The notes: generated by a model from the sequence alone, not told the origin. 64,000 bases of DNA from a virus (IMGVR_UViG_3300032092_002720:64001-128000), one strand, 5' to 3'; shown: positions 34,276 through 50,585, counted from the first letter of the stretch. A program made the numbers and translations.

Positions 34276-34278
34276 ATA
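34271..34278 (+). promoter_or_regulatory. T4-type late promoter
   Basis: Exact TATAAATA about 46 nt upstream of the next ATG. Confidence 0.75.
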
Positions 34279-34324
34279 TCATGAGGATTATATAATCCTA
34301 TCATACTCTATATAGAGGTTGGGA

Positions 34325-36223
34325 ATGCCGAATAAATTTCAATTTAAGCGTACGACAGTCTCAGGTCGTACAGCTAATACTACGAACGCAGCAAACGCGG
34401 CCTTTATTGACAAGGGCGAGTTGGCTATTAACTTAGCCGATCGCAAAGTCTTTTCTTCAGACGCGTCGAATAATATCTTCGAAGTCGGATCCAACCTCTC
34501 AAGTCTCGCAGTTACAACTCTTGTTGCTAACGGTTCTTCGGGTTCCAATACACAAGTTCTAGCCTCGAATGGCACGGGTGTATATTGGACATCTGCTACT
34601 GCTACTCTCGGCTCTGTTAACTGGGCGCAAAACGCTGCTCCATCAGTATACATTAGCGCTGGCACTCCAACAGTCATTGCGCAGATTAGTCTTACCTCTT
34701 CAGGTAGCCCGATTCAAATCATTGCACACGGCGATGCCAATCCTCTCACTGCTGGCGGTTGGGGTAGATTACAGCTTTATCGAGGTTCAACGCCGATCGG
34801 TGCTCAGACTCACTTTGAGTCTTCTAACGGAAACGAAAACGTTCCGTATTCACTTCAATTCATTGATACTCCTCCTGCAGGAACCTACACGTATTCTATT
34901 AAATCTAACTCTGTTACTGGTAACACTCAGTACGGTGAAACTGATGGACCAGTAATTTCTGTCGTAGAACTTCAAAACGTTGTAGGTGCACAGGGTGCTC
35001 AAGGTGCACAGGGAGCAACTGGAGCCCAAGGTGCGCAAGGAATTACGGGCGCACAAGGCGCCACTGGGGCACAAGGTTCGCAAGGTGCAACTGGTGCTCA
35101 AGGTGCACAGGGAGCTCAAGGACTTCAAGGAGCACAAGGAGCAACTGGAGCTCAAGGACCACAAGGTGAGACTGGAGCTCAGGGCGTTCAAGGCGCACAG
35201 GGACCACAAGGTGCACAAGGTGCAACTGGTCTCGGATTCAAGATCGCAAAGTCATATGTTTCTGTAGCAGCACTCACAGCCGATACCTCACCGACTGGTA
35301 TCTTGGCTGGTGAATTTGCTATCGTTGAAACTGGTAATGTAAACGACGCAGAAAACTCAAGACTCTACCTTTGGAATGGATCTGCATATTCATACGTATC
35401 AGATCTTTCGGGTTCGACAGGATTTACAGGACCTCAAGGTGCGACTGGTCCACAAGGCGCAACAGGACCTCAAGGTGTGCAAGGACCACAAGGTCCAGGT
35501 GTTGATGCCAACTTAAGTGTTACATGGGCTAACACACAGATCTTCAATGCCAACGTTACATTCAATGCTGGTGTCATCGCTAACAGTTCGATTGGTGCCA
35601 ACGGAGAAGTACTGACGTCGAATGGAACTTCAGTTTACTGGGGTCCAGCTGCGGTCGCTTCGAACGTATACACAAGCATAGTAACGTATACATACTCGAT
35701 CTCGTCTAACACGACTGTTATTACAGGCGCAGATGCCAATACGCAAATTCTTTCATACACTGCTGGCCTCGAGAGCGTGTTCCTCAACGGTTCGAAGCAG
35801 ATCTCGACCACAGATTATACCACTCCGAACTCTGCGGCGATTACGTTTACTTCGAATGTCATTGCAGGTGACGTCGTTCAGATCGTCGCTCAGATTCCTG
35901 CGCTTAGCGTAATCGAAGGCGCATCGAACTCACAGACAACTTCGACAACTGCAAATACCATCGTAGACTCTTTCGCGAAAGCAGCATACAGATCAGCTAA
36001 GTATTACATACAGATTACATCTGGATCAGACTATCACATCACAGAAGCATTACTTCTTCATGATGGCTCTCAGGTCTATGTAACCGAGTATGGTACAGTA
36101 TATTCAAACACATCACTTGGTAATGTTAGTGCTAATATTAATTCCAGTAACGTAAATCTGCTGGTTGCTCCTACAAACTCTTCGAGCGTAGTAAAGACGA
36201 AGAGAATTACTCTTGACGTATAA
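34325..36223 (+). CDS. Fibre protein: Mtd_N-like start, collagen segments, C-terminal YRSAKY.IQ domain
   Basis: FQFKRT....GELAINLADRK.FS start, G-X-Y runs, DSF.KAAYRSAKYYIQI...TE.LLLHDG....TEYG. ATG at 34325 follows GAGGT. Confidence 0.75.
   Translation: MPNKFQFKRTTVSGRTANTTNAANAAFIDKGELAINLADRKVFSSDASNNIFEVGSNLSSLAVTTLVANGSSGSNTQVLASNGTGVYWTSATATLGSVNWAQNAAPSVYISAGTPTVIAQISLTSSGSPIQIIAHGDANPLTAGGWGRLQLYRGSTPIGAQTHFESSNGNENVPYSLQFIDTPPAGTYTYSIKSNSVTGNTQYGETDGPVISVVELQNVVGAQGAQGAQGATGAQGAQGITGAQGATGAQGSQGATGAQGAQGAQGLQGAQGATGAQGPQGETGAQGVQGAQGPQGAQGATGLGFKIAKSYVSVAALTADTSPTGILAGEFAIVETGNVNDAENSRLYLWNGSAYSYVSDLSGSTGFTGPQGATGPQGATGPQGVQGPQGPGVDANLSVTWANTQIFNANVTFNAGVIANSSIGANGEVLTSNGTSVYWGPAAVASNVYTSIVTYTYSISSNTTVITGADANTQILSYTAGLESVFLNGSKQISTTDYTTPNSAAITFTSNVIAGDVVQIVAQIPALSVIEGASNSQTTSTTANTIVDSFAKAAYRSAKYYIQITSGSDYHITEALLLHDGSQVYVTEYGTVYSNTSLGNVSANINSSNVNLLVAPTNSSSVVKTKRITLDV
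34985..35499 (+). repeat. Two collagen-like (G-X-Y)n segments
   Basis: GAQ/GAT/GPQ runs at about 34985-35230 and 35420-35499. Confidence 0.9.
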
Positions 36224-36226
36224 ATA
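36219..36226 (+). promoter_or_regulatory. T4-type late promoter
   Basis: Exact TATAAATA overlapping the upstream stop, 28 nt before the long-fibre ATG. Confidence 0.78.
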
Positions 36227-36254: not shown

Positions 36255-39200
36255 ATGACTACACCAGTTAATTTTCGCGTTAAGAACGGGTTAACCGTAG
36301 CGAACGGAATAGCAGTAACAGCCGGAAACGTTGTAATTTCGAGCGGTCAACTCGTGATCGGTGCTACTGCGATCAACTCAACTTCACTCAGCCAATCGGC
36401 TGACAATGCATACGCTAACGGCGTGAACTATGCAGACGGTAAAGCTGCTGATGCTTATACGAATGCTGTAGCTGTAGCTACTGGTTCCTCGACCAATGCA
36501 TATAATAACGCTGTTGCTTTTGCGGCCAATGCCGATAATCTCACAACTGGAACACTTTCTCTCAATCGCCTTCCTGCGACAGTGAACGTATCTCTCGCTC
36601 TGAATGTTACAAATACTGTTAACATTTCAACGAGTAACGTAACTGTTTCACAAGCGAATGATGTCGCGAAGATCACAGGAACCACAATTTCATTAACAGA
36701 CAGTTTAACAGAAACTGGTAATACTTATTATGCAGCAATCTCTCATGATAAACTGATTACAGAAAAAACTTATACTGTTGCCAACGTAATCTATGCAGAT
36801 TACGGCGAACTCTCGCGCACAGGAATGTTTGCAGGTGTAGGTATCGATACGTCTAACACTTCAATCTATGTTCGAGGTGTCACAGTCAATACCTCGGTGA
36901 TTGCGATCGGAAATACTTCAGTATTCAGTTCCATCAACTCGACGGCATTTTCTGGTAACGGCGCATCACTTACTTCTGTCAATGCTGCGACAGTTGGCGG
37001 TAACTCTGCTTCTGACCTTCGAACATATACAGAAACGTATGCATCAAATGCCACGAATCTGACTTCAGGTACAGTCAACTCTGCTCGCCTCCCATCAGCA
37101 AATGCTACCGTAGCAGGTGCAACTCTTCTTGTCGATTCAGTATCGAATACTTCGACGACAGCAGCCGCTTCAGCAGCTTCTGTTAAAACTGCATATGACG
37201 CAGCCATTACTGCAAACACGAATGCGACCAATCTTTCTGCGAATGCATATTCGAATGCTGTAACGTATACTGATAATAAAGCTGCAAATGCATACTCGAA
37301 TGCCATTGCTATCGCAGCGAATGCTACCAACCTCACATCTGGTACTGTCAACGCAGCAAGACTTCCATCTGGTAACTCGACAACTGCAGGCGCAGTGATT
37401 CTTGTCGATTCGATAGCGAACACTTCAACAACTGCAGCCGCTTCTGCTGCAGCTGTAAAAACCGCCTATGATGCTGCCATCGTTGCTAACACAAATGCAA
37501 ACACTGCGTTAACAGCCGCTGGATCTGCATACACGAACGCAGTGTCATATACAGACACCAAAATTGGAACTGCAAACACTGCTATCACTGGCAATGCGGC
37601 GACCGCATATTCGAATGCTGTATCATATACAGATACGAAGATTGCAACTGCTAATACTGCCATGGCCGCTAACGCAGATGCTGCTTATACGAATGCAATC
37701 GCGATCGCTTCCAATGCAACTAATCTGACATCTGGTACAGTTAACTCAGCTCGTCTTCCATCTGGCAACTCAACTGTTGCCGGTGCGGTAGTTCTTGTCG
37801 ACTCGGTCTCGAATACATCGACAACTGCAGCTGCATCTGCCGCTTCAGTCAAATCTGCTTATGACGCAGCGATTACGGCAAACACAAATGCTAACACTGC
37901 ATTGACTGCCGCTGGCTCGGCTTATACCAATGCCGTATCTTATACCGACACAAAGATCGGTACTGCAAATACTGCCATGGTTGCAAATGCCGCTGCAGCT
38001 TACACTAACGCAGTCTCTTACACAGACGGTAAAATCAGTACTGCCAATTCTGCTATTACAGGAAATGCGGCTACCGCTTATAGTAATGCTGTGTCTTATG
38101 TAGATACAAAGATTGGTACTGCCAATACAGCAATGGTAGCAAATGCTGGCGCTGCTTACACAAATGCTGTATCTTATACCGACACGAAGATCGGCACAGC
38201 TAATACAGCGATGGTAGCAAATGCTGGCGCTGCTTACACAAATGCTGTATCTTATACCGACACGAAGATCGGCACAGCTAATACCGCAATGGCTGCTAAC
38301 GCGGCAGCAGCTTATACGAATGCAGTCAGCTATACTGATACAAAAATTGGCACCGCGAACACTGCAATGGCTGCTAACGCAGCTGCAGCTTATACCAATG
38401 CGGTAAGTTACACTGATACGAAGATCGGCACTGCAAATACTGCGATGGTAGCCAATGCCGGAGCCGCTTATACCAATGCGACTATCTTTGCTGCGAATGC
38501 TTCGAATGCAAACAATGGTACTCTTGCTGAAGCTCGTCTTCCATACCGTATGAATCAGGATCTCAGAACTTCTGATTCTCCGACTTTTGCAAACGGCTCG
38601 TTTACTGGTTCTGTTACAGTAGGTGGAAACTTAACCGTAACTGGTAATCTGATTTCGACTAACATCGAATCTTTCTCTGTGTCGGATCCTCTGATCAAGC
38701 TAGGTGTGAATAACCCCGGTGATACTTATTGGGGTGGATTTACATTCCACTATAACGGATCTGGTAATACTACAAACCATGCTGGTCTTGTACGTAGTCC
38801 GACATCAAAAGAATTCCTTCTTATGTCGACGTTTGGTGATGAGACTGCTGTTGCTAATAACAACACGATCAACATTGCTGATGCATCGTTCTCATATGCC
38901 AATTTAACGGTTAATCTATTAAAGGCTGGCAACTCTACGGTATTCTCAAGTATTAATGCTACGTCGTTTACCGGTACAGCAAATAATGCCACGAATGCTT
39001 TCGGTAAGACAGAAGGCGCGATCAATGCTAACTCTGCTCTGACTGCAAACAACTCGACGAATCTTGGCGGTCAAGATGCAGCATACTATACTAATGCGAC
39101 TAATATTAGTACTGGAACTCTACCTTTCGCTAGACTCCCATCGTTGTATCTTGGCACGACTGCTATTCAATCGACGAGTGCTGCTCAAGCTGTAAGCGGT

Positions 39201-40283
39201 ATCACAACTCTTGCGGCTGGTAATACTACCATCTCAGGTTTTGCTAACGTTATAAGTGGATTATCACTTTCTAATGGTACATCAAACTTCATCACTTGGT
39301 CGACAGCCGGTGTTGACGGTCCTTCTATTAATACACGAAGCCCGGGTACTAAGCTATTACTATATCCAGCTCTGTCTGTGAGTCAAACTGATTATGCTAT
39401 GGGTATTAGCCCGGCAACAATGTGGTCTACTGTTCCTACTAACGAAGATAGCTTTAAATTTAAATGGTATGGAGCTGACATAGAAGTTGCTTCTCTGAGT
39501 GGTACTGGTAACTTTAAGATATCTGGATATGCTAACGTATCTGGAGCAATTCAAGGTGGATCATCGCTTACAATTGCAGGTGCCGCTTCTGGTATCACTA
39601 CGCTTGCCGCAGGTAATACTACGATTACCGGAAACCTTAGTGTTTCGAGCGTCGGTAGCTTCGATCGAGTAACTACTGCCAATAATGGCGGTGGAACAAA
39701 TATTGGTATCGGTGATGATGCATGGTTCGGCGATATTAATCAGGCCGATACTGTTCGCATCATGGGTCAACAGAGTGCCAACAACGGATACATTGTTTTC
39801 GGCAATGCTAACAATGACATCAAATTGGGACGTTCTGGAACTGGTGCTCTTACATGGAACGGAGCATTCAGTGTTACTGGCGGACTAACTACTCTGTCAG
39901 CAAACCTTGTGATGGCCAACAACAACATCACGAATCCAACGCTGACAGGTTATACCGAATCTGAAGTTTCAAATACAGCTGTCACAGGAACATATACTCT
40001 TAACTGTGTTGCTTCTAACTTCTGGGATCTTACGCTTACTGGAAATACAACGATCTCTCCAACAGGAGTTCCTCCGAGCACAAGAATGTGGGCTGGAACT
40101 ATCGTAGCAAAACAAGATGCTACCGGTGGTCGCACGATCACTTGGCCGACAGGAAGTAAATATCCTGGCGGTGTAGCTCCTCCTGCAACAACAACCGCAA
40201 ACGCCATCGACGTATGGTCACTCATGACTTATGACGGCGGTACTTCTTGGATTGTTTCTCTGACGGTGAAGGGCGCCGCATAA
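36255..40283 (+). CDS. Long tail-fibre-like protein with a repeat stalk
   Basis: FRVKNGL N-terminus, three fibre repeats (AGA..LVDS.SNTSTTAAASAA.VK.AYD), nine 26-aa repeats and a C-terminal QDATGGRTITWP...PGG.APP...ANAIDV domain. Confidence 0.8.
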   Translation: MTTPVNFRVKNGLTVANGIAVTAGNVVISSGQLVIGATAINSTSLSQSADNAYANGVNYADGKAADAYTNAVAVATGSSTNAYNNAVAFAANADNLTTGTLSLNRLPATVNVSLALNVTNTVNISTSNVTVSQANDVAKITGTTISLTDSLTETGNTYYAAISHDKLITEKTYTVANVIYADYGELSRTGMFAGVGIDTSNTSIYVRGVTVNTSVIAIGNTSVFSSINSTAFSGNGASLTSVNAATVGGNSASDLRTYTETYASNATNLTSGTVNSARLPSANATVAGATLLVDSVSNTSTTAAASAASVKTAYDAAITANTNATNLSANAYSNAVTYTDNKAANAYSNAIAIAANATNLTSGTVNAARLPSGNSTTAGAVILVDSIANTSTTAAASAAAVKTAYDAAIVANTNANTALTAAGSAYTNAVSYTDTKIGTANTAITGNAATAYSNAVSYTDTKIATANTAMAANADAAYTNAIAIASNATNLTSGTVNSARLPSGNSTVAGAVVLVDSVSNTSTTAAASAASVKSAYDAAITANTNANTALTAAGSAYTNAVSYTDTKIGTANTAMVANAAAAYTNAVSYTDGKISTANSAITGNAATAYSNAVSYVDTKIGTANTAMVANAGAAYTNAVSYTDTKIGTANTAMVANAGAAYTNAVSYTDTKIGTANTAMAANAAAAYTNAVSYTDTKIGTANTAMAANAAAAYTNAVSYTDTKIGTANTAMVANAGAAYTNATIFAANASNANNGTLAEARLPYRMNQDLRTSDSPTFANGSFTGSVTVGGNLTVTGNLISTNIESFSVSDPLIKLGVNNPGDTYWGGFTFHYNGSGNTTNHAGLVRSPTSKEFLLMSTFGDETAVANNNTINIADASFSYANLTVNLLKAGNSTVFSSINATSFTGTANNATNAFGKTEGAINANSALTANNSTNLGGQDAAYYTNATNISTGTLPFARLPSLYLGTTAIQSTSAAQAVSGITTLAAGNTTISGFANVISGLSLSNGTSNFITWSTAGVDGPSINTRSPGTKLLLYPALSVSQTDYAMGISPATMWSTVPTNEDSFKFKWYGADIEVASLSGTGNFKISGYANVSGAIQGGSSLTIAGAASGITTLAAGNTTITGNLSVSSVGSFDRVTTANNGGGTNIGIGDDAWFGDINQADTVRIMGQQSANNGYIVFGNANNDIKLGRSGTGALTWNGAFSVTGGLTTLSANLVMANNNITNPTLTGYTESEVSNTAVTGTYTLNCVASNFWDLTLTGNTTISPTGVPPSTRMWAGTIVAKQDATGGRTITWPTGSKYPGGVAPPATTTANAIDVWSLMTYDGGTSWIVSLTVKGAA
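37527..38466 (+). repeat. 26-aa (78-nt) coding repeat, 2 + 7 copies
   Basis: AYTNAVSYTDTKIGTANTAM.ANA.A. 38133-38206 and 38211-38284 are identical over 74 nt. Confidence 0.92.
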
Positions 40284-42331
40284 TGAGTATTGGTGGTGGT
40301 TCGAAGTTTACATTAGAGAAAACATGGCGTGGTGCCGGGACTGGAACAACTAAGTTCAACAGTCCTGGTAACATCACGATTCCTTATGGTAGAAATAGTG
40401 TTCTTGTTTCTGGTAGAGGTGGCACAGGCACAGCTTTGATCCCTGGTCCTGGAACCGGCACATTCAACATCATTCCTGGCAATGCGACTGGCACATTCAA
40501 CATCATTCCAGGAAATGCGACTGGAAACTTTAATATCGTTCCTGGCAATGCGACTGGCACTTTTAATATTGTTCCTGGAAATATAGCCAACTATAATATT
40601 ATCTTTCCTCAGACCGGCAATTTCAATATCATATTCCCGCAGACCGGAGGATTCAACATCGTTCCAGGAAATGCTACTGGCACTTTCAACATTGTTCCAG
40701 GAAATGCAACTGGCAACTTTAATATCATTCCTGGCAATGCAACTGGCAACTTTAACATCGTTCCTGGTAATGCTACTGGCACTTTCAACATTGTTCCAGG
40801 AAATGCCACGGGTACATTTAACATTATTCCTGGTAATATTGCCAGCTACAATATCATTTTCCCAGGAACTGGTACATTCAACAAAGTTCCAGGGAACATA
40901 GCTGGTTATAACATCATTTTCCCTGGAACAGGTACTTTCAATATCATCCCTGGTCCTGTGGCAAACTACAACATCATTTTCCCAGGCACAGGGTCATTCA
41001 ACAAAGTTCCTGGAAACATCTCTGGCTATAACATCGTTTTTCCGGGTACAGGAGCATTTAACATTGTTCCAGGTAATGGTACAGGAACTTTTAACAAAAT
41101 TCCAGGTAATATATCTAGTTACAATATCAATCCGGGTCCAGTGTCAGGCTATAACGTAAATCCAGGCAACGTTTCAGGCTATAACGTAAATCCAGGCAAC
41201 GTGTCAGGCTATAACGTAAATCCAGGCAACGTATCTGGAAGCAATGTTATTCCTGGAAATGCCACCGGCACATACAACTCTGTTCCCGGAAATCGAATTA
41301 ATCCGGCGGTTATTAATCCGAAATTTGGATATTTTGCAGGAAGCTTCAATGCACCGTCTGGTGGTCCTCAGAACTTTAACTCTCCATCAGCAGGTCCTTC
41401 TAACTTTAACTCGCCTACTAATGGTCCTGCAAACTTCAATGCAGCGAGCAATGGTCCTGCAAACTTCAATGCAGCAACCAATGGTCCTGCAAACTTCAAT
41501 GCGCCAACTAATGGCCCTGCAAACTTCAATGCACCGACAAATGGCCCACAAAACTTTAACCCAGCTACCAACGGTCCACAAAACTTCAACGTTGCCAATG
41601 GCCCTGCGAACTTCAATGCACCGACAAATGGCCCACAAAACTTCAACGTTGCGAATGGCCCTGCAAACTTCAATGCGCCAACCGGTGGACCTCAGAACTT
41701 TAACGTTGCCAATGGTCCTGCAAACTTTAATGCACCAACGAACGGTCCACAAAACTTCAACGTAGCCAATGGTCCTGCAAACTTTAACCCTGCCACTAAC
41801 GGGCCTCAGAATTTCAATCCTGCCACTAGCGGTCCGCAGAATTTCAATCCAGCTACTAATGGTCCACAAAACTTTAATCCAGCTGTCGGTGGCCCTCAGA
41901 ATTTCAATCCAGCGACTAATGGACCTCAGAACTTTAACCCAGCTACAAACGGTCCTCAGAACTTTAACGTAGCGAATGGTCCTCAGAACTTTAACGTAGC
42001 GAATGGACCTGCTAACTTTAATCCTGCAACCAATGGTCCTCAGAACTTTAACCCTGCAACTAATGGTCCACAAAACTTTAATCCGGCAACGAATGGACCT
42101 CAGAACTTTAACCCTGCTACCAGCGGACCTCAGAACTTTAATACTCCAACTCCAGCCGTTCCAGGAAATCCGTCAAATACACTTGGTATTACTTTCCCTG
42201 GTTCAAATGCTGGAGGAACGGCTGCACCTGTGATAAATAACCAGATAGCGAGCTACTATGCTTATCCTGATGGCCAATCGCATTCGGTAACTGTGGCTCC
42301 TGGAGGATATATAGATATTACTATTGAATAA
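40283..42331 (+). CDS. Asn/Gly/Pro-rich mirror-repeat protein, 682 aa, probably virion-associated
   Basis: TAATG overlap with the fibre gene gives a start at 40283 (MSIGGG). Non-repetitive ends flank two repeat arms. Confidence 0.85.
   Translation: MSIGGGSKFTLEKTWRGAGTGTTKFNSPGNITIPYGRNSVLVSGRGGTGTALIPGPGTGTFNIIPGNATGTFNIIPGNATGNFNIVPGNATGTFNIVPGNIANYNIIFPQTGNFNIIFPQTGGFNIVPGNATGTFNIVPGNATGNFNIIPGNATGNFNIVPGNATGTFNIVPGNATGTFNIIPGNIASYNIIFPGTGTFNKVPGNIAGYNIIFPGTGTFNIIPGPVANYNIIFPGTGSFNKVPGNISGYNIVFPGTGAFNIVPGNGTGTFNKIPGNISSYNINPGPVSGYNVNPGNVSGYNVNPGNVSGYNVNPGNVSGSNVIPGNATGTYNSVPGNRINPAVINPKFGYFAGSFNAPSGGPQNFNSPSAGPSNFNSPTNGPANFNAASNGPANFNAATNGPANFNAPTNGPANFNAPTNGPQNFNPATNGPQNFNVANGPANFNAPTNGPQNFNVANGPANFNAPTGGPQNFNVANGPANFNAPTNGPQNFNVANGPANFNPATNGPQNFNPATSGPQNFNPATNGPQNFNPAVGGPQNFNPATNGPQNFNPATNGPQNFNVANGPQNFNVANGPANFNPATNGPQNFNPATNGPQNFNPATNGPQNFNPATSGPQNFNTPTPAVPGNPSNTLGITFPGSNAGGTAAPVINNQIASYYAYPDGQSHSVTVAPGGYIDITIE
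40463..41302 (+). repeat. Repeat arm 1: 27 units of (F/Y)N-xx-PGN-... (10-11 aa)
   Basis: Ten 11-mers plus seventeen 10-mers give 280 aa, which matches the 840-nt span. Confidence 0.92.
41345..42136 (+). repeat. Repeat arm 2: 27 units of FN-xxx-NGP-(Q/A)N (9-10 aa)
   Basis: Twenty-one 10-mers plus six 9-mers give 264 aa, which matches the 792-nt span. Confidence 0.92.
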
Positions 42332-42353
42332 GTGATTTGAAGAAGGATTTACT

Positions 42354-42947
42354 ATGCCATATATTATTCCTAAATATGGGAAGCAATTAAATTGTTTCGC
42401 GGTGTGGACAGGAGGATTTACTCCTGAAGAAGTCGATATGATCATCGACTTAGAAAAGCTCCAAGAATTTGAAAAGGGTAAAGTTGGGCTCGAGCAAAAT
42501 GCTGCGGCTCCTGCACATACGCGTGATTCTGATATCTCATGGATCCATCATGATCATCACAGCGATTGGCTCTTTAATAGAATGTCTGGAATTGTATCGA
42601 CTGTCAACTACGATCACTTTATGTATGACATCGAAGGAGTCGAGGCTTTTCAATATACAAAATACGGACCAAATCAACACTACACTTGGCACTGGGATGT
42701 TGAGTTCGGCTGGCAGAAATATATAAGAAAGATATCGGCATCTCTTCTTCTCTCAGATCCTGATGAGTATGAAGGCGGAGAGCTAGAGATTGTAAACAAT
42801 GGAAACTTTGAAGATAAAGTCTCGTTTAAACCGAATAAAGGTGATATCGTATTCTTCGCTTCATGGATGCCACATCGAGTGAAGCCAATCACATCAGGAA
42901 CGCGTAAGAGTCTTGTAGCATGGGTAATGGGTGAAAGAGAATGTTGA
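42354..42947 (+). CDS. 2OG-Fe(II) oxygenase, prolyl-4-hydroxylase-like
   Basis: Q.T.Y.....Y.WHWD (HxD), RKISASLLLSDP.EYEGGEL, F.S...HRV.P.TSGTRKSLV.W. Confidence 0.92.
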   Translation: MPYIIPKYGKQLNCFAVWTGGFTPEEVDMIIDLEKLQEFEKGKVGLEQNAAAPAHTRDSDISWIHHDHHSDWLFNRMSGIVSTVNYDHFMYDIEGVEAFQYTKYGPNQHYTWHWDVEFGWQKYIRKISASLLLSDPDEYEGGELEIVNNGNFEDKVSFKPNKGDIVFFASWMPHRVKPITSGTRKSLVAWVMGEREC

Positions 42948-43678
42948 GTTGGAATCCTTTTAAGAAGAAACCTATCATTGAGTTTTATTGTCATCGAGAT
43001 GACGTAGCCAGTTTGCCGCATCCAAAGCCTGCAGCTAAACATATACCTGAATGGTATAAAAGAATTCCTCCGCTCATTACAGACGGCCGAGACGATCGTG
43101 ATTGGTCAGGATCACATAGTTTTACTGCAAAAAAATGCATGCCAATGATAGACGCCATGTCGTTGGGTTATGTCATTCCTCTTATCGCCGACATGACAGT
43201 CAGATCAAATCATGACTGTAGTACGATCGAAGTGACATCTTCTCCTCACATCACTGTATGTGAGTTTCATGACATTCGGCAACTCGGAGAAAGATCTGCT
43301 CCAGGATTTCCTGCTCCACCTTTAAAGTTCGTTAATCCATGGATCGTAAAGACTGCTCCAGGTTGGTCTACACTTTTTATAGCGCCGATTAACAACTTTG
43401 AAAGTCATTTTACTTGCTTATCTGGATTGGTCGATACTGATACATATCCAAAGGAAGTCAATTTCCCTGCAATCTGGCATACTCCAAATGCTGACGTGCT
43501 TCTGCCTGCTGGAACTCCATTGGTCATCGCTATCCCAATTAAGCGCGATGCAGTCCCATCAAAGCCTACGATAAGAGATATGAAAGAACCAGAACAACAC
43601 TTGATCAATCTCATATCGAAGATGCAAAACACGCGCAGAAGTGTATATACAAAAGAACTGAGAGCACCCAGAAAATGA
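42941..43678 (+). CDS. Conserved hypothetical protein (possibly DUF6065-like), paralog 1
   Basis: IPEWYK, KKCMP..DA..LGY.IP, KF.NPW..KT.PGWS.LF and G.VDTD.Y...VNFP. The family name is recalled, not verified. Confidence 0.55.
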   Translation: MLSWNPFKKKPIIEFYCHRDDVASLPHPKPAAKHIPEWYKRIPPLITDGRDDRDWSGSHSFTAKKCMPMIDAMSLGYVIPLIADMTVRSNHDCSTIEVTSSPHITVCEFHDIRQLGERSAPGFPAPPLKFVNPWIVKTAPGWSTLFIAPINNFESHFTCLSGLVDTDTYPKEVNFPAIWHTPNADVLLPAGTPLVIAIPIKRDAVPSKPTIRDMKEPEQHLINLISKMQNTRRSVYTKELRAPRK

Positions 43679-44415
43679 AAGATCTGTTTTCTTTTTTAAA
43701 ACCGAAAAAAGATATCGAATTCGTAGATACGAAGAAATTATCTTATCATAACTTTTCTGTCGAACGAGCTGTTGATGTTCCAACAAACACTCGTAAAGTC
43801 CAACAAGACAAGTATGGTAAACATCTGATGCCATACTGTCCCGGAATTTTAGATTATGCCCAATTCGGGTATATCATTCCAGCTTGGGTAGACATTCATA
43901 TTATGGCAAACAAAGCTGGCACTTCATGGTATCTTGGAGATAAAGGTGCTAGAGGAGATCGTGGTTTTGACAACGGCGTGAAGATGGATGAAAAGTTTGT
44001 AGAAGGTGCATTTACTCCTATTGGAATTAATCCTACTGCAATCTTGTTTCCATCGCCTTGGAAAATCTTTACACAAAAAAACATCAGCGCATTGTTAATG
44101 CCAGCATTCTACCACTCTACCTTTCTCGATGATCTATACGTGACGCCAGGTTTGGTAGATTATAAAAACTTTCATATCACAAACTTCATCTGTATGCCGA
44201 AGAGAGAATGTAACGTTCATATCAAAGCAGGCGAACCTTTACTACATGTCATTCCTTTCCTTAATAAAGATATTAGTGCTTCAGTTGGTCCTGCTACAGA
44301 TGAGATGATAGATAAAACTGCAAATCTAATTCCTGGAGATGATAAGCAATACTATCGGAAGTTTATGGGAATTAAAAAGAAATTTAATATGCAAAAAGAA
44401 GAGATTAAACAATGA
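43675..44415 (+). CDS. Conserved hypothetical protein, paralog 2
   Basis: CPGILDYAQFGYIIP, FPSPWKIFT, PG.VDY..F...NF and AGEPLLHVIP align by eye with paralog 1. Confidence 0.55.
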   Translation: MKDLFSFLKPKKDIEFVDTKKLSYHNFSVERAVDVPTNTRKVQQDKYGKHLMPYCPGILDYAQFGYIIPAWVDIHIMANKAGTSWYLGDKGARGDRGFDNGVKMDEKFVEGAFTPIGINPTAILFPSPWKIFTQKNISALLMPAFYHSTFLDDLYVTPGLVDYKNFHITNFICMPKRECNVHIKAGEPLLHVIPFLNKDISASVGPATDEMIDKTANLIPGDDKQYYRKFMGIKKKFNMQKEEIKQ

Positions 44416-45431
44416 ACATTTTTGTTTCAGTATGCTCGTACCAAGATCCTTTACTTCCTCATACTATCAAGAGTATGATGCAGACCAAATCAAATAGAAA
44501 CAACGTAGTCTATTCGATCTTCGAGCAGACGCGGTTCGAGGATTCTTTGGCTTGCACAGAGCCTGTGCTTGTAAATAGAGATGATGTCATCTATAAAAGA
44601 ATTGATCCAGAATATTCTGATGGCTGTGTTTGGGCAAGATACCTTAACTTGTTAAACGTAACAAATGAGTACGACTTTATCTATCAAGTCGACTCTCACA
44701 TGCTACATGACATGAACTGGGATCGCTCTCTTGTTGAAGATTATAAGAGAGCAATGGATATGGCTGGAACGAACAAAGTAATCATTACTGGTTCGTGTAA
44801 ATCATTTACGATTGAAGAAAAAGATGGGGAAATTAAAACGTATCCTCAGCATGAAGTCAACGATGCATGTCAAGTAAAGTACTACACTATCGATCCTCAT
44901 AATTTTATTCCAGACGTTCACGGCGATAATATTCCTTCGACTGATATGCCGAGACCTGCATTCCATATTATGGCTGGCAACTTCTTCACACACACCGATT
45001 GGCTCGATGAAGTTGGTTTAGATCCAAAGATATTCTTCCGCGGAGAAGAAATAATGATGACGATGATGTCATATGCGGCTGGATATAAGATGTTCCATCA
45101 TAGTAAGATGGTATCATATCATCTTGAGAACACTCGAAACTGGCATACGAAGACTCCACCAGAAAATGTAAAAGCTGCCCGAAGAAGAGAAATCTTGGCT
45201 GAAATTGGTATATGGAGATGGAAGCAGTATCTCGAAACTTGCAGAGAAGATCTCCTTTCCGAGTTCCATAAAGAATTCGGTGTAGACTTTATTAACTTAG
45301 AAATTGAAGAGCGCGCAAAGACTTATAGTCTCGATGCTATCGGTGGAGTTGATATCCTCGCTATTTCGAAGAAACCAAAGAAGAAAGTAAAGCTGCCTAA
45401 AACTCTTTTCATGAGTGAAGACGAAGAATGA
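44412..45431 (+). CDS. GlcNAc transferase resembling Skp1-hydroxyproline Gnt1 (GT60-like)
   Basis: IFVS..SY.DP.L..TI, G..WAR, Q.DSHM....WD..L, AG.FF....L.EV..DP..FF.GEE and GY..FH. Confidence 0.8.
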   Translation: MNIFVSVCSYQDPLLPHTIKSMMQTKSNRNNVVYSIFEQTRFEDSLACTEPVLVNRDDVIYKRIDPEYSDGCVWARYLNLLNVTNEYDFIYQVDSHMLHDMNWDRSLVEDYKRAMDMAGTNKVIITGSCKSFTIEEKDGEIKTYPQHEVNDACQVKYYTIDPHNFIPDVHGDNIPSTDMPRPAFHIMAGNFFTHTDWLDEVGLDPKIFFRGEEIMMTMMSYAAGYKMFHHSKMVSYHLENTRNWHTKTPPENVKAARRREILAEIGIWRWKQYLETCREDLLSEFHKEFGVDFINLEIEERAKTYSLDAIGGVDILAISKKPKKKVKLPKTLFMSEDEE

Positions 45432-45961
45432 TCGTATGTTCTCTCCCACGCTGCGGAGCTACAAAGTTTTGTTTAGACTTTCAAGAAAAAACAAAACTTA
45501 AGTTTGTGGGAGAGTTACATCCTGTTCATATTCAAAGTGATAGAAAAGCTTTGACGCACGAAACAGAGTATCAAACTAACTTTACTTCGGATTCTTTCGC
45601 AGAACTTTTACATGATCATAGCGAACACATTGCACTTGTAAATCAGCACTCATATCTTTTGGCTAATCAAGCAAGTGTTTTCATGCTCCGTAAAAATATG
45701 AGAGATGCATCTCTTAGCTTGGCAAACTATATGTTGAAGGCATATCCAGGAATTAAAGTAGCCGCACTGAAGTTTAATCTAGCTCTGATGCACCATGATC
45801 ATAAGGCTCTGACAGCATATTTAAATAAATATGAGAAAGAAGTGGTATGGTATGAAGACTACTACGGCATCTCTGGAACAAAAACCCCCTTGCTCGATTC
45901 GTATATCGGAAGAGATTCTATCATAAAAGAGATTGACGACTATTATGGATCAACAGTTTGA
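45428..45961 (+). CDS. Sulfotransferase-like protein (Stf0-like PAPS-binding loop)
   Basis: N-terminal SLPRCGAT.F, LRKN..DA.LS and WYEDY resemble the 5'-PSB loop and downstream motifs. The protein is short and divergent. Confidence 0.55.
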   Translation: MIVCSLPRCGATKFCLDFQEKTKLKFVGELHPVHIQSDRKALTHETEYQTNFTSDSFAELLHDHSEHIALVNQHSYLLANQASVFMLRKNMRDASLSLANYMLKAYPGIKVAALKFNLALMHHDHKALTAYLNKYEKEVVWYEDYYGISGTKTPLLDSYIGRDSIIKEIDDYYGSTV

Positions 45962-46658
45962 TAAAAGATACGTTCTTACTACTATCCAACTGATAGGTCC
46001 ATTTATCGTATTATGGGCACTCTTGCAATATGCTACACTCGCATGGGTAGCCGTTGCTATGATCATGCTTTTTCTGATGAGAATCGTAGGCGGTTCGATA
46101 TTCTATCATCGCATTCTTTGTCATCACACTCATGATGTGCATCCAACAGTAGAGTTTATCGGCACCGCACTCGGATTCTATGGATCCTTTATGCCACCTG
46201 CAGACTTTTGCATAACACACTTCAATCATCATAAGTATGCTGACACTGAGCAAGATCCTCATTGCCACAGCACGCAAGGCTGGAGAACGATGTTCCCTAT
46301 TTTATGGAATATTACCAATCGGGTAGATTTTCGAACCGTAATTCGTCTTCGAAAAAATAAGACAGTCAATCTATTTTCTGAGAAGTATTGGCTGGTGGCA
46401 TCTTTGCCACTTCTATTGCTACTCATATCGCCTGAAGCATTCTTGTTTTTGTTTCTTATTCCGTGTACTCTATCGATATGGTCGGCGGCAATATCTACAA
46501 TGAATCACGATGAGAATGGAGCAAAGAACATGGGATTCTGGTATGGAATCGTAAGTGGCGCCGAGCACAAGCATAAGAATCATCACGATGATATATCAGA
46601 TGAAGGTTGGATAAATACCGTAGCAAATATAATAGCCAAAAAGAGAGTTAAAACATGA
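45945..46658 (+). CDS. Membrane fatty-acid desaturase-like di-iron enzyme
   Basis: Hydrophobic helices and three His boxes: HRILCH, HFNHH..AD...DPH and HKNHH. Confidence 0.85.
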   Translation: MDQQFDKRYVLTTIQLIGPFIVLWALLQYATLAWVAVAMIMLFLMRIVGGSIFYHRILCHHTHDVHPTVEFIGTALGFYGSFMPPADFCITHFNHHKYADTEQDPHCHSTQGWRTMFPILWNITNRVDFRTVIRLRKNKTVNLFSEKYWLVASLPLLLLLISPEAFLFLFLIPCTLSIWSAAISTMNHDENGAKNMGFWYGIVSGAEHKHKNHHDDISDEGWINTVANIIAKKRVKT

Positions 46659-47203
46659 ATCTTGTTACAATCACTATAAATGATTTATCAGAAGTTGATT
46701 TTGATGATCTGTATGAAAGATCCAAAGATGCAATCGACGCAAATTGGCCATCTACATCTATAATGACAGATGAAGAAAAAAAGGCCGGATATGTGGCTGC
46801 TATAACTAGTGGATTAAACAACGAATGGCCAGGTTTAAATCCACACGGACCAAACGACAGATATGTTGTCGCCAAACAAGTAGACCTTGATACAGGAACC
46901 GAACTAGGATTAGTCGCAGGATTTGTTCTTCCAGACGGGATTTTTGATGGTAGACATTCTATGAGTTCTCGCGATGCAAGCGGTTCTCGAAACTGGGTGT
47001 TTTCTGAACAATTTAGACAAGCTCGAAGCGATTGGTATGCAAGTATTGGAGCAACTAAAACTTTATATAGAAATATTGTTGCCGATTCTATGCATTATCG
47101 CCACATTAAAATGCGAGCAGGATTACATTTTGAAATCATAGAAGATATAGAATCTCCAACTTATGGCCCGCGTTTTAGAAATGTCACAGTAGAATATAAG
47201 TAA
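46655..47203 (+). CDS. Hypothetical protein
   Basis: 182 aa, translationally coupled on both sides. No family recognised. Confidence 0.7.
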   Translation: MNLVTITINDLSEVDFDDLYERSKDAIDANWPSTSIMTDEEKKAGYVAAITSGLNNEWPGLNPHGPNDRYVVAKQVDLDTGTELGLVAGFVLPDGIFDGRHSMSSRDASGSRNWVFSEQFRQARSDWYASIGATKTLYRNIVADSMHYRHIKMRAGLHFEIIEDIESPTYGPRFRNVTVEYK

Positions 47204-47907
47204 TGAAATTTTTATTGAATGTAGGAGCCGAGAAAGCTGGCACTACTTGGTTATATGATTATTTTCGAAACCATCCAGAATTCTATGATATGGGGAAAGA
47301 ACTCAATATCATTCAGAGAGATGATTTGGTGCCTATCTTAGAAGACGTAGACGAATATAGAAAAGACATAGAGTCTTTCTTTCGAGCAGTTTCAAATATA
47401 AATCAGGTGACAGGTGACTTCACACACTACGAAGGCTCAAGCGAGAACGTCTTTCGACTTATAAAGAATGGCTTGCTAAAGTACGATATCGAAGTAGTGC
47501 CAGTCTATATTATGCGAGATCCTATTCAAAGGGCTTGGTCTTCTTGGAATTCTCTCGGAGGAGGAAAGATTGCAATTAAATCCCCGGCTTCACAATTTGT
47601 GATGACTAATTTTATGTCATGCAAATATAGAGAAACGATAGAAGCTTTAGACGGTGTTTTCCCAAATCCGTTATATTTCTTCTATGAGGATTTTTTTACT
47701 CAAGACAATATCAATAAGATATGCGATGAGTTACAGATTTCTCATCATCCTGCAGAATGTGACACCAGAATCAACGCTTCTCCGTATAAGAAAATACCAA
47801 ACATCTTCTTGAAAACTTTTGGTAAATCTCCGAAGAATAAAACAACTGCTAAATATATTTTTGAAAGATTTGAAAATGTACCATGGAAACTCGAAGATTA
47901 TCCGTAG
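47203..47907 (+). CDS. Sulfotransferase family protein
   Basis: VGAEKAGTTWLY.YF..HPE (5'-PSB loop) and MRDPI.RAWS (3'-PB). Confidence 0.88.
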   Translation: MKFLLNVGAEKAGTTWLYDYFRNHPEFYDMGKELNIIQRDDLVPILEDVDEYRKDIESFFRAVSNINQVTGDFTHYEGSSENVFRLIKNGLLKYDIEVVPVYIMRDPIQRAWSSWNSLGGGKIAIKSPASQFVMTNFMSCKYRETIEALDGVFPNPLYFFYEDFFTQDNINKICDELQISHHPAECDTRINASPYKKIPNIFLKTFGKSPKNKTTAKYIFERFENVPWKLEDYP

Positions 47908-48469
47908 ATCTACTCTCGATGAAGATCTTCGCTTAAAATTGCTTGAGGGTTTAAAAAATCCAGTACACATGCACTACTTTGATCGTAACGAAGCTACGAA
48001 CGCAACAGACGAAGCTGTGCTTGAGTTTCTCGACAGAGAACAATTTGGATGTAATAAAACTCACATCGAATATTGGTTTCAGTCTAAAGAATTTTCAGAG
48101 CATTTGTGGCCGCACGTAGATTTTAATGAGAAACTTCGAGATAGAATTAATGCTGGGGAACAATTAGAGCCAGAAGAACTGATGTCTCCAATTACCATCG
48201 CCTGTTATTTAGAGGCAACCGACCTTGAAGGCGGAGAATTCTGCATCTCTGAAAGAAGTTGGTTAGACTATGAAAAAGAACTCAACGATCCAGTAGATTT
48301 AAAAGAAGATTTGCTCAAATATACGTACGAATCTTTTCAACCCTTCGAAGGCGCAGTGTTATACTTTGAAGGCAGCAGATACTACCATTGGATCAACGAA
48401 GTCAAACGAGGATCTCGTAAGAGTATATTAATCAATTTCTGGGACGACTGTAGCCTTAAGTCCACTTAG
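47876..48469 (+). CDS. 2OG-Fe(II) oxygenase
   Basis: LWPHVD, YL...DLEGGEF, F.G..YYHWI..V..GSRKSI..NFW. Start placed at ATG 47876. Confidence 0.85.
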   Translation: MYHGNSKIIRRSTLDEDLRLKLLEGLKNPVHMHYFDRNEATNATDEAVLEFLDREQFGCNKTHIEYWFQSKEFSEHLWPHVDFNEKLRDRINAGEQLEPEELMSPITIACYLEATDLEGGEFCISERSWLDYEKELNDPVDLKEDLLKYTYESFQPFEGAVLYFEGSRYYHWINEVKRGSRKSILINFWDDCSLKST

Positions 48470-49208
48470 TTCCATGACGAGAGCTATACTTGGTTTCAGG
48501 ATCGTATGCTGCAAAGTCTTCGTAGCGAGGATCTCCTGGCTCGGCTCTCTTACCGATGCTATACTCACCAATATGATTAACGATGTTATGGCCTTCTTCG
48601 GTCTTCAGTTTACATGTCTGCATACCAAGTTGCTGCAATGATTTTGCTACGACATACTCGCTTAAGTTCTTCTCGCCTACTGATTCGGCATGAGGAAGAT
48701 CTACTATGGCGCGAGGAAAAACACTTGCCAAGCTCCAAAAATATGCCTCAGAAAGTTCACCGCGGTATTTTCCAAGTGTAATGTCTGTTTCATAAGCCTG
48801 TGTTTCCTCTTCAAAGTCATACCATTTCTGACGTGTCAAACACACCTGAGAAACGTTACGATAGTCATGTAAGATCTGAGTCATGTCAAGCATTCGAATC
48901 GGATGATTGAATGTCACGTCATCTTCTGACAGATACACGTAATCATAATCTCGTTCTCTCAGTAGTTCGAAGGTTCTATTCCATACGTATGGCAAACCCA
49001 TGTTCTGCTGATGCAAGTAGATCTCAGTAAAGCCAAAATTCTTGGCTAGCTCGAACATCGTGCCGTCATGCCGGCCTTTTGGCATATCATCGATAAAGAT
49101 GCCTTCGACTTGACAACCTTCGAAGTTTAACATATCACGCTGAGATTTAAGCGTAGGAATCAAATACTCGAGACGGTTCGTCGACCATATAATCTTACAA
49201 ACTTTCAT
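48456..49208 (-). CDS. Glycosyltransferase (GT-A fold, GT2-like)
   Basis: NR.EYL..TL.S, IFIDD, N.GL...WN, YVYL.EDD and V.HIG. Confidence 0.75.
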   Translation of the reverse strand: MKVCKIIWSTNRLEYLIPTLKSQRDMLNFEGCQVEGIFIDDMPKGRHDGTMFELAKNFGFTEIYLHQQNMGLPYVWNRTFELLRERDYDYVYLSEDDVTFNHPIRMLDMTQILHDYRNVSQVCLTRQKWYDFEEETQAYETDITLGKYRGELSEAYFWSLASVFPRAIVDLPHAESVGEKNLSEYVVAKSLQQLGMQTCKLKTEEGHNIVNHIGEYSIGKRAEPGDPRYEDFAAYDPETKYSSRHGTKWT

Positions 49209-49756
49209 TGCGCATACTCCGTGTCAAAGAAGAATGTCTGAAACAGACGACCATCATATAAATCTTTACCAAAGTAATCTAAGCTGGCATGGAAGAGGTC
49301 ACCGCTATAAAGAACTAGTCGATTGTATTTGTTGCCTACGATGTCGATCTTATCCCACTTGGTATAGTCGTATGCCTCGTGCTCGTTTTTCGGAGCTCGA
49401 TACTCTCCAGTTTCCTTGTGTCGAAACATTCCTGTGCCTGCAGTATGCGGCGCATCAGGCGTGAGATAGCATACACCAGCCCACATACTCGTGTGATCGC
49501 AGTGGATCCACGTTCTATCCATAGATGTTGCGTATTGAAAGGCTCCAGTGTAACCCGAATCTTCATGCCAATTGGTAATCTTTCCAATTGGATTCATCCA
49601 ATGTTGAATGCAGTCCTTGACATCTTGTGTCAAGAATGAAGGCGTTCGTTTTCCTGGGTAGTTACCTGTGACGCTAAAGTCTTGTGTAAGAGCAAAGGCT
49701 CTGACTGCGTCGGGATTGATATAGAAGTTATCTATAATCATCAAGTCTAAATTCAT
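49205..49756 (-). CDS. 2OG-Fe(II) oxygenase-like protein (DUF6445-like)
   Basis: IIDNFY.NPD.VR, YPG.RT, WIH.D, WAGV.YL.PDAP...GT and YNRLVLY....FH.S. Confidence 0.75.
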   Translation of the reverse strand: MNLDLMIIDNFYINPDAVRAFALTQDFSVTGNYPGKRTPSFLTQDVKDCIQHWMNPIGKITNWHEDSGYTGAFQYATSMDRTWIHCDHTSMWAGVCYLTPDAPHTAGTGMFRHKETGEYRAPKNEHEAYDYTKWDKIDIVGNKYNRLVLYSGDLFHASLDYFGKDLYDGRLFQTFFFDTEYAQ

Positions 49757-49787: not shown

Positions 49788-49795
49788 TATTTATA
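49788..49795 (-). promoter_or_regulatory. T4-type late promoter driving the minus-strand enzyme pair
   Basis: TATTTATA on the plus strand equals TATAAATA on the minus strand, 31 nt before the ATG at 49756. Confidence 0.75.
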
Positions 49796-49800
49796 CGGCT

Positions 49801-49808
49801 TATAAATA
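49801..49808 (+). promoter_or_regulatory. T4-type late promoter for gp13
   Basis: Exact TATAAATA 33 nt upstream of gp13. Confidence 0.8.
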
Positions 49809-49841: not shown

Positions 49842-50585
49842 ATGGCCACTCCTACTACAAAAGCCGAGTTCAAAGAATACTGTCTCCGTAAGTTAGGCAA
49901 GCCAGTAATTGAAATCAACGTAGACGACGATCAAGTCGATGATCGTGTTGACGAAGCGCTTCGTTACTGGTATGACTATCACTTTGATGGTTCTGAAAGA
50001 GTATACTACAAGCATGCTATCACGTCAACTGACGTAACAAACAAGTATATCACTCTTCCAGAAAATATCATCGGCGCGGTCAGCATCTTCTCGATGGGTG
50101 ATCCTTCGATCCGCTCTGACGACCTCTTTAACATTCGCTATCAGATCGCTTTGAACGACCTCTACACTCTGACTAACGTGTCGCTTGTTCCATACTATAT
50201 GGTCATGGAACACCTTGCTCTGATGAACGAACTCCTTGTCGGTAAACAGCCTATTCGTTATTCTCGTCACAAAGATCGTCTTTATGTTGATATGGACTGG
50301 AACACTGTTGCTGTCGGCGAATTCTTACTCGTTGAAGCCTACGAAGTAGTCGATCCAGAAACATGGACAGATGCTTATAACGATCGTTGGCTTCAGAACT
50401 ATGCTACAACTCTGATCAAAGAACAGTGGGGTTCCAACCTTACAAAGTTTACAGGCATGACTTTACCTGGAGGAGTTCAATTTAACGGTGAGAAAATCTA
50501 CGACGATGCCGTAGCCGAAAGAAGAAAGCTCGAAGACGAGATGATTTCTTCTTATTCTCTGCCGGTTCTCGATATGATTGGATAA
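49842..50585 (+). CDS. gp13: Neck protein gp13
   Basis: K.YCLRKLG.PVIEINVDDDQ.DDR..EAL and WG.NL.KF.G..LPGGV..NG. Confidence 0.95.
   Translation: MATPTTKAEFKEYCLRKLGKPVIEINVDDDQVDDRVDEALRYWYDYHFDGSERVYYKHAITSTDVTNKYITLPENIIGAVSIFSMGDPSIRSDDLFNIRYQIALNDLYTLTNVSLVPYYMVMEHLALMNELLVGKQPIRYSRHKDRLYVDMDWNTVAVGEFLLVEAYEVVDPETWTDAYNDRWLQNYATTLIKEQWGSNLTKFTGMTLPGGVQFNGEKIYDDAVAERRKLEDEMISSYSLPVLDMIG

Follow-up and report, generated by a model that had tools for sequence, protein, structure and literature searches.

A conserved repeat protein and its linked candidate modifying enzymes in the tail-fibre region of an uncultured T4-like phage

Genes and transcription of the fibre-gp13 interval

The window analysed here is a stretch of 64,000 nucleotides (nt) (IMGVR_UViG_3300032092_002720, positions 64001-128000), the second half of a 128,766-bp IMG/VR virus record that is about 75% complete and belongs to an uncultured, freshwater, T4-like myovirus. 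Between the last tail-fibre gene and gp13 lie the gene of a repeat protein, named NCdom here, and 11 further genes (40283-49756). The map of open reading frames (ORFs) agrees on this with the initial annotation, which had taken the whole set for a protein substrate with its decoration pathway. The first five of the 12 genes (40283-45431) recur together across phages, and they are listed with the fibre gene that precedes them.

36255..40283, plus strand: long tail fibre, 1342 amino acids (phrog_9017 tail fiber, 1.1e-11, residues 1232-1340)
40283..42331, plus strand: NCdom repeat protein, 682 amino acids
42354..42947, plus strand: oxyA, a 2-oxoglutarate (2OG)-Fe(II) oxygenase, PiuC/YbiX-like (2OG-FeII_Oxy_3, PF13640, 1.2e-18)
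42941..43678, plus strand: DUF6065 paralog a, with a dUTPase fold (DUF6065/phrog_7084; structural model)
43675..44415, plus strand: DUF6065 paralog b (phrog_7084, 1.1e-19)
44412..45431, plus strand: GT60/PF11397 protein resembling N-acetylglucosamine (GlcNAc) transferases, Gnt1-like (PF11397, 4e-26)

The ATG of NCdom at 40283 overlaps the fibre stop codon by 1 nt, and the gene is followed by nine plus-strand genes (to 48469) and two minus-strand genes (48456-49208 and 49205-49756). The sole gap, of 22 nt, separates NCdom from oxyA; every other junction overlaps, by 7, 4, 4, 4, about 17-29, 4, 1 and about 32 nt, in agreement with the mostly overlapping stop and start codons first described. The ORF map and family scans also confirmed the first inventory of three 2OG oxygenases, two glycosyltransferases, two sulfotransferase-like proteins, a desaturase and three proteins of no assigned family, but several of the family calls are weak and the last two genes lie on the minus strand. 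The paralogous pair among the unassigned proteins belongs to DUF6065 and has a dUTPase fold, and the third is GNAT-like.

The signals and genes that frame the interval are as follows.

34271..34278, plus strand: T4-type late promoter box, TATAAATA, ahead of the collagen-like fibre gene
34319..36223, plus strand: collagen-repeat tail fibre protein, 634 amino acids (Pfam Collagen, 6.8e-16; many PHROG tail-fibre families)
36219..36226, plus strand: late promoter box, TATAAATA, the last on this strand before 49801
49788..49808: divergent pair of late boxes, 49788-49795 (minus strand) for the DUF6445/GT-A pair and 49801-49808 (plus strand) for gp13
49842..50585, plus strand: gp13 neck protein, the right-hand boundary (DLP_6 match; PF26809 on the homolog in locus L045)

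T4 late boxes were the only promoter-like signals found. The next plus-strand box after the one at 36219 is at 49801, so all genes from the long fibre to 48469 are probably transcribed from 36219, and the plus-strand genes would ride on the fibre late promoter. Terminator-like sites numbered 10, against 11.6 expected by chance, and none was convincing. The claim that no terminator follows the box at 36219 therefore stands, but the minus-strand pair has a late box of its own. With a late box TATAAATA upstream and no convincing internal terminator, the arrangement is that of a T4 late transcription unit, and the description of the unit as embedded in virion genes holds, given its position within tail-fibre genes and under T4-type late boxes.

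The C-terminal domain of the long fibre (..PPATT..D.W....DGG....SL.VK..) is, by synteny, of the type that is always encoded directly upstream of NCdom genes in related modules. The same fibre carries many near-identical repeats of about 20 amino acids, of the AYTNAVSYTDTKIGTANTAM type.

The linked proteins

NCdom has a conserved N half (about residues 1-50) and C half (about residues 625-682) around two repeat arms, the first of 27 units of about 11 amino acids (PGNATGTFNIV type) and the second, after a short centre, of 27 units of about 10 (NGPQNFNPAT type). These 27 + 27 [F/Y]-N units bear out the estimate of about 54 repeats made at first. The N halves of the homologs share the motif ..LEKTW..TFNAPGN..IPYGR..V.G.GG.G and the C halves ..LGV.FPG...YY.YPD..YPV.V..GG.I.I; the centre is non-repetitive and contains Cys in many of them. 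The repeats are swapped entirely between lineages (FNIVPGN, TNYNVAYPIATQP, GTYNAPT) with the N and C halves and the enzymes kept, and an aromatic-Asn pair and Pro are common to them all. Forms of 183-215 amino acids are almost devoid of repeats.

In 11 close homologs the unit count of arm 2 rises and falls with that of arm 1: 27/27, 28/27, 27/28, 25/24, 25/24, 24/24, 23/21, 22/20, 19/18 and 13/12, with 30/26 in the eleventh, for which the arm-boundary rule is doubtful. The AlphaFold model has a mean pLDDT (per-residue confidence) of 52 over the whole protein and is trustworthy in the N and C halves only, which are modelled together with confidence (pLDDT 81-90); the arms are poorly modelled. 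The covariation of the arms (13/12 to 28/27) and the jointly modelled halves argue for a hairpin, with the paired arms as a predicted stalk. The beta-solenoid look of arm 1 and its curli and tailspike matches are generic and were set aside as evidence; the N-x-T sequons of arm 1 were dropped as a conserved feature, being absent from most homologs. No Pfam or PHROG model matches the family, a search of the Atlas with the repeat protein gave no usable match, and tblastn with a short homolog found no match among cultured phages, where close records may have been masked. NCdom is thus a newly defined family of fibre proteins with a natural series of length variants. In loci L203 and L206 (5980-9584) NCdom is apparently split into two ORFs of 739 and 461 amino acids, carrying the N half and the C half, and in L208 (5278-8072) four tandem short paralogs (229-231 amino acids) precede a single oxyA/DUF6065a/DUF6065b set and gp13.

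Many near-identical short units beside tailoring-type enzymes could also denote a multi-core precursor, tailored and cut into about 54 peptides in the manner of ribosomally synthesised and post-translationally modified peptides (RiPPs). This reading, already the less favoured one in the initial annotation, is scarcely credible: family scans found neither protease nor transporter or exporter among the 11 genes, so that the gene content is not that of a RiPP cluster, the N and C ends form one confident domain, and the arm counts covary as in a folded hairpin. Moreover, near-repeatless homologs keep the enzymes, and the gene lies in a fibre cluster.

The two recognisable enzymes of the cassette pass their family models well. 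oxyA scores 68.3 bits on PF13640 (cut-off 27), and its iron triad and 2OG-binding residues (H113-x-D115, H174 and R184) are invariant among 39 homologs; NCBIfam models of the YbiX type stay below their cut-offs. The GT60 protein scores 92.7 bits on PF11397 (cut-off 21). Its DxH metal motif (D94-S95-H96) and H237 are invariant in 30 homologs, PF11397 is present in 113 of 113 database homologs, and no solved homolog was found among PDB sequences. One lineage (L100, 8414-9985, P0206) has GT60 fused to a methyltransferase domain (PF13489/PF13649/PF08241) in a protein of 518-523 amino acids.

The model of DUF6065 paralog a (pLDDT 89) has the dUTPase/dCTP-deaminase fold. The top 22 matches all belong to this superfamily (VIA-align Z 6-10.2), the next fold drops to Z 3.3, and Foldseek against PDB and Swiss-Prot agrees; a dUTPase-like fold is now assigned to DUF6065. 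Paralog a shares with the trimeric dUTPase/dCTP deaminase superfamily this fold and a motif-III-like GLVDTDxY, its only recognisable dUTPase motif, and differs in about 100 extra residues, a helical C-terminus and the fibre-cassette context. The Gly-rich C-terminal motif V was not found, no genome protein matches PF00692, no canonical dUTPase was found in the 128-kb record, and the DUF6065 profile had no match among PDB sequences. DUF6065 thus cannot be counted among the canonical dUTPases. About 45 residues of paralog a are invariant, and polar ones (K, C, D, H, Q, N, T, S, R) are frequent among them; paralog b lacks most of these polar residues and shares the structural ones only, which suggests a catalytic and a non-catalytic partner. 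A complex prediction for paralog a (P0073) with its cognate short NCdom (P0123) scored 0.00 and speaks neither for nor against binding. Halovirus HSTV-2 (L047, gene 40) and other haloarchaeal myoviruses carry DUF6065 proteins 30-35% identical, at the junction of replication and structural genes, and a Pfam scan of the neighbours of the DUF6065 gene in cyanophage Sf-CH5 was uninformative.

The fold and its motif-III-like stretch, the thymidylate synthase gene beside a halovirus homolog and the lack of a canonical dUTPase could mean that the dUTPase-fold pair, the oxygenase and the glycosyltransferase build or attach a modified base, as in the glucosylation of hydroxymethylcytosine in T4 or in base J. 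Such a role in nucleotide or DNA modification is highly improbable, however, for genes that have late boxes only and lie within fibre genes, whose oxygenase is of the PF13640 (PiuC-like) and not the TET/JBP type, and whose strict link is to a structural-type protein in a cassette that moves with the fibre gene.

Conservation and proposed role of the cassette

Close relatives were collected by an IMG/VR scan with the GT60 protein (41 loci at 71-97% identity) and mapped by tblastn. Wherever the contig reaches, the repeat protein, oxyA, DUF6065a, DUF6065b and GT60 occur in fixed order; the enzymes are 82-97% identical to those of the window, and the repeat protein 45-88%, with lengths of 394-685 amino acids. 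A DUF6065a profile gave 45 further, distant loci (50-59% identity), in all of which a fibre gene is followed by NCdom (one or two genes), oxyA, DUF6065a and DUF6065b, in some of them with a sulfotransferase-like gene after oxyA, and usually with GT60. Further fibre genes often continue downstream of the cassette, which places it inside the fibre cluster and not merely beside gp13.

The converse scan was seeded with the C-terminal motif of NCdom, and ORFs were labelled by hidden Markov models in 54 distinct modules with at least 2.6 kb downstream. oxyA came next in 54/54, DUF6065a was present in 53/54, both paralogs in 52/54 and a sulfotransferase-like gene in 5/54; the order tail fibre, repeat protein, PiuC/YbiX-type oxygenase was invariable. 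Locus L144 has a single DUF6065, and the L203/L206 lineage has NCdom, oxyA, GT60 and another NCdom gene without DUF6065. The co-occurrence check proposed with the initial annotation thus came out strongly for the repeat protein, oxyA and the DUF6065 pair, often for GT60, and not for the accessory genes.

Independent copies of the cassette were also found. Relatives L024, L025 and L042, and also the longer record G001, have a second, diverged module downstream and on the opposite strand; the record of the window has one module only.

799-9773 of L131 (G001:C1:6000-24000), minus strand: second module
4458-11395 of L025: second module

Its order is a collagen fibre, a Gly/Asn/Pro repeat protein of 1120 amino acids with the same N-terminal motif, a gene for 101 amino acids, DUF6065 (41-43% identical to paralog a), an oxyA-like protein (38% identity), a Cys-rich protein of 152 amino acids (CxxCxxCC-like) and two 2OG_Oxy_5 proteins. 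On an 863-kb contig of Undibacterium sp. (L212, 813672-826394), a fibre with the same type of C-terminal domain precedes a 210-amino-acid NCdom, oxyA, DUF6065a/b and a DUF4376 protein, in podovirus-like surroundings (Phage_capsid_3, SU10-type adaptor). This element is possibly a prophage, and Undibacterium, a freshwater betaproteobacterium, offers a lead to a host. From the second modules and the podovirus-like element, gene content indicates that cassette and fibre move together from one phage type to another, unrelated one, as is usual for host-recognition modules.

Since the linkage survives repeat turnover, duplication and transfer between phage types, and only late boxes were found, a functional unit is the best explanation. 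We consider it somewhat better than an even chance (about 0.55) that 40283-45431 is a mobile, conserved cassette of a fibre accessory protein with its own enzymes. The idea of a substrate with dedicated enzymes thus survives for this unit, as co-occurrence supports, but not for all 11 genes: five of the 12 genes are demonstrably linked, and with them the phage probably modifies its own host-recognition fibre.

In the proposed scheme, NCdom would be a hairpin-shaped, length-variable accessory fibre protein encoded immediately behind the long fibre gene; its N and C halves would form a single base domain and the two matched Pro/Asn/aromatic-rich arms a stalk. The enzymes would be produced with it late in infection. 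oxyA may hydroxylate the fibre protein, most likely on Pro and possibly on Asn, in the repeats or in the base domain, and GT60 may then add N-acetylhexosamine (HexNAc) to the hydroxylated residue or to a neighbouring Thr or Ser. The DUF6065 pair would provide an obligatory third activity, as an enzyme binding nucleotides or uridine diphosphate or as an assembly factor, paralog b being perhaps non-catalytic. Given two recognisable enzymes and a Pro/Thr-rich target, hydroxylation followed by HexNAc addition would be the most economical chemistry.

There is a precedent for such chemistry. In Dictyostelium and Toxoplasma, Skp1 is modified by the prolyl 4-hydroxylase (P4H) PhyA and then, on hydroxyproline, by the GT60 GlcNAc-transferase Gnt1, a reaction named in the PF11397 description. 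As in that pathway, a cytoplasmic 2OG oxygenase of the P4H superfamily is encoded here with a PF11397/GT60 transferase that has the DxH motif, and a two-step logic of hydroxylation and GlcNAc addition is plausible by analogy. In the phage, however, the oxygenase is nearest to PiuC/YbiX and not to PhyA/PHD, the presumed substrate is a repeat-bearing fibre protein, two dUTPase-fold proteins stand between the enzymes, and GT60 is dispensable in about a fifth of the modules. A Skp1-type pathway is therefore compatible with the evidence but incomplete.

Several observations weigh against a dedicated fibre-modifying cassette. The solved relatives nearest to oxyA are the PKHD-type PiuC/Sbal_3634 (about 5e-7), and not proven prolyl hydroxylases; matches to the EF-Tu prolyl hydroxylase PPHD (4e-3) and to the P4H of chlorovirus PBCV-1 (0.02) are much weaker. 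'Prolyl hydroxylase' is thus a putative assignment of oxyA at the level of the superfamily. GT60 is found in 42/54 modules of the converse scan, and a 322-kb contig (L170) has a fibre and an NCdom-like gene with no enzymes. DUF6065 occurs elsewhere without NCdom, in haloarchaeal myoviruses beside thymidylate synthase and in an auxiliary-gene region of a cyanophage, and its chemistry may therefore be nucleotide-related and general; the neighbouring thymidylate synthase and the dUTPase fold suggest a role in nucleotide metabolism for the halovirus branch. The initial order of hydroxylation, glycosylation and sulfation, like the coat of sulfated or acylated glycans for mimicry or shielding proposed with it, is hypothetical, and the scheme leaves the nucleotide-enzyme fold of this central pair unexplained. 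The desaturase-like protein of the accessory block, with readable His boxes (HRILCH, HFNHH, HKNHH) and hydrophobic N-terminal segments typical of membrane enzymes, looks membrane-bound, which makes a soluble fibre an unlikely substrate for it. All matching sequencing runs are DNA and none RNA. Finally, conservation is far higher in the enzymes than in the repeats. The repeats may therefore not be what is modified, and the [F/Y]-N...P motif held in common or the conserved base domain may be the target instead.

This difference in conservation, with hypervariable repeats beside conserved enzymes, also fits a doubtful but serious alternative, in which the linked proteins are assembly or maturation factors of the fibre or modify another virion protein, such as the collagen-like or the long fibre, and the DUF6065 pair acts as trimeric chaperones or adaptors. 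Collagen-repeat fibres adjoin both modules, and P4H-type enzymes classically act on X-Pro-Gly; dUTPase-fold proteins are trimeric and are reused non-enzymatically in herpesviruses (UL82 and ORF10 are among the fold matches), and the next gene after the cassette in the Undibacterium element encodes a DUF4376 protein. The invariable neighbour is NCdom, however, and not the collagen gene; several modules have no collagen-type fibre nearby, and the approximately 45 invariant, often polar residues of DUF6065a look enzyme-like. It is rather unlikely, too, that the hairpin protein, the PiuC-type oxygenase and the DUF6065 pair form a new protein-maturation system, in which a nucleotide-enzyme fold has been recruited for an undescribed modification or cross-link; if they did, a modification on the [F/Y]-N...P repeats or the base domain would set fibre stiffness, length or receptor specificity, and the many 'viral prolyl hydroxylase' genes found in aquatic phages would gain a first defined substrate.

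The reading of 40283-45431 as a fibre accessory protein with its own enzymes can be set beside known viral systems. T-even gp38 is likewise a small, fast-evolving, Gly-rich protein encoded directly after the long distal fibre (gp37) and exchanged with the C-terminal domain of the fibre. NCdom differs from it in having a split base domain, two matched arms and attached enzymes, and neither sequence comparison nor the PHROG scan matched it to gp38. Mimivirus L230 is a collagen hydroxylase/glycosyltransferase. The P4H of PBCV-1 acts on Pro-rich viral repeats (Eriksson et al. 1999, as cited in PMC9301287). Both resemble the cassette in that a virus encodes a P4H-superfamily oxygenase, in some cases with a glycosyltransferase, and also has virion proteins that are collagen-like or bear Pro-rich repeats; they belong to giant eukaryotic viruses, whereas the phage cassette has an operon-level link to its presumed substrate and the DUF6065 pair, and the similarity to the PBCV-1 enzyme is marginal. 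Mycobacteriophages also encode glycosyltransferases beside structural genes, and O-glycosylation of their own virion proteins has been shown experimentally, whereas for the present cassette modification is a prediction. The mycobacteriophage enzymes belong to other families and act on C-terminal tails of capsid and tail-tube proteins, without an oxygenase, DUF6065 or a dedicated repeat protein. Capsid glycosylation has also been inferred from two glycosyltransferase genes (PMC11256854).

Viral modification of a virus's own virion proteins (chlorovirus P4H, mimivirus L230, mycobacteriophages) and the P4H-plus-Gnt1 logic of Skp1 are therefore known already. The novelty lies in the substrate family, in its operon-tight linkage, in the obligatory pair with a dUTPase fold and in how widely the module is spread among uncultured aquatic phages. 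Literature searches found no paper on DUF6065 or on the fibre/NCdom/oxyA/DUF6065 module, and nothing relevant on the function of PiuC or on GT60 in phages. Few 'auxiliary' genes of aquatic phages are as abundant as those of P4H-like 2OG oxygenases, whose role has been called cryptic (PMC9301287). In more than 50 distinct phage modules, one oxygenase subfamily is now seen in tight operon linkage with a particular, fast-evolving fibre protein. Should phage enzymes hydroxylate and glycosylate the fibre, host recognition would depend on a phage-made post-translational code, and this would bear on the prediction of host range from sequence.

The accessory block and the neighbouring genes

The seven genes between GT60 and gp13 are as follows.

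45428..45961, plus strand: sulfotransferase-like protein, 177 amino acids (Atlas language-model features only)
45933..46658, plus strand: membrane fatty-acid-desaturase-like protein (FA_desaturase, PF00487, 33.6 bits, cut-off 29.7)
46655..47203, plus strand: GNAT-like acetyltransferase, 182 amino acids (Atlas features 0.96; structure TM 0.6-0.64)
47203..47907, plus strand: candidate sulfotransferase, 234 amino acids (Pfam below cut-off; both motifs for binding 3'-phosphoadenosine 5'-phosphosulfate, PAPS)
47876..48469, plus strand: second 2OG oxygenase-like protein (weak 2OG-FeII_Oxy_3, 5.5e-5; start TTG 47819 or ATG 47876)
48456..49208, minus strand: GT-A-like glycosyltransferase, weak (Pfam 0.05; PHROG glycosyltransferase 9e-6)
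49205..49756, minus strand: DUF6445 protein, 2OG-oxygenase-like (1.9e-14)

The desaturase-like protein has the features of PF00487 and falls far below the cut-off of the NCBIfam DesA model. For a sulfotransferase assignment Pfam gives 20-22.6 bits, under the cut-offs; the gene at 47203-47907 has readable PAPS-binding motifs K-A-G-T-T and R-D-P-x-x-R-x-x-S, and the one at 45428-45961 is a feature-based lead. The DUF6445 protein matches phrog_1644 'minor coat protein' (5.5e-32), either a mis-annotation or a hint that such proteins occur in virions.

That all 11 genes form one pathway, as had been supposed, is contradicted by the distant modules, from which the desaturase, the GNAT-like protein, both sulfotransferase-like genes of the window, the second oxygenase, the GT-A-like gene and DUF6445 are absent. 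The same seven are variable or missing among close relatives as well. The genes of 45428-48469 are missing there or divergent (43-77% identity for three of them), the sulfotransferase-like gene at 45428-45961 being absent or 60-77% identical. GT60 abuts the GT-A-like gene in L009 and L010, L018 lacks four accessory genes and L040 lacks two. Between 44 and 48 kb the GC content drops to 0.38, from 0.44-0.47 in the neighbouring fibre genes, which is consistent with separate acquisition of accessory enzymes at 44000-48000. With its lower GC, variable content and probable membrane enzyme, the accessory block is best treated as a separate, swappable set driven by late promoters.

These properties are also what would be expected if the enzymes, especially those of the accessory block, act late on the host envelope or on small molecules (lipids, lipopolysaccharide (LPS), receptors), for example to prevent the trapping of progeny or superinfection, the fibre/neck junction being an insertion hot spot. 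The LPS-gene islands of cyanophages are a precedent, and the block holds a membrane desaturase-like protein, sulfotransferases, a GNAT and a GT-A-like gene, with the low GC and the swapping, divergence or loss among close relatives just described. As an account of the whole interval this is quite improbable: it leaves unexplained why NCdom, oxyA and DUF6065 stay linked through repeat turnover, duplication and transfer, and is therefore tenable for the accessory block but scarcely for the core. Distant modules repeatedly contain sulfotransferase-fold genes from an unrelated lineage, which hints weakly at a relevance of sulfation. By eye, nothing obvious related the presence of GT60 or sulfotransferase genes to the Thr or Tyr content of the repeats among these loci, which are related to one another.

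As to the phage itself, gp13 is 68.8% identical to the neck protein of Stenotrophomonas phage DLP_6 and about 52% identical to its counterparts in the Sinorhizobium phiM12 group and Caulobacter Cr30; megablast and blastn of the island DNA against cultured phages gave no match. Near-identical DNA occurs in sequencing runs of 16 studies, labelled freshwater metagenome or, oddly, 'fungus metagenome'. In one subgroup of close relatives (L022, L029, L031, L033, L035, L037, L038 and L043) the block from the fibre genes to the second oxygenase gene is inverted relative to gp13, giving the order gp13 (minus strand), DUF6445 (plus), GT-A-like (plus) and fibres (plus).

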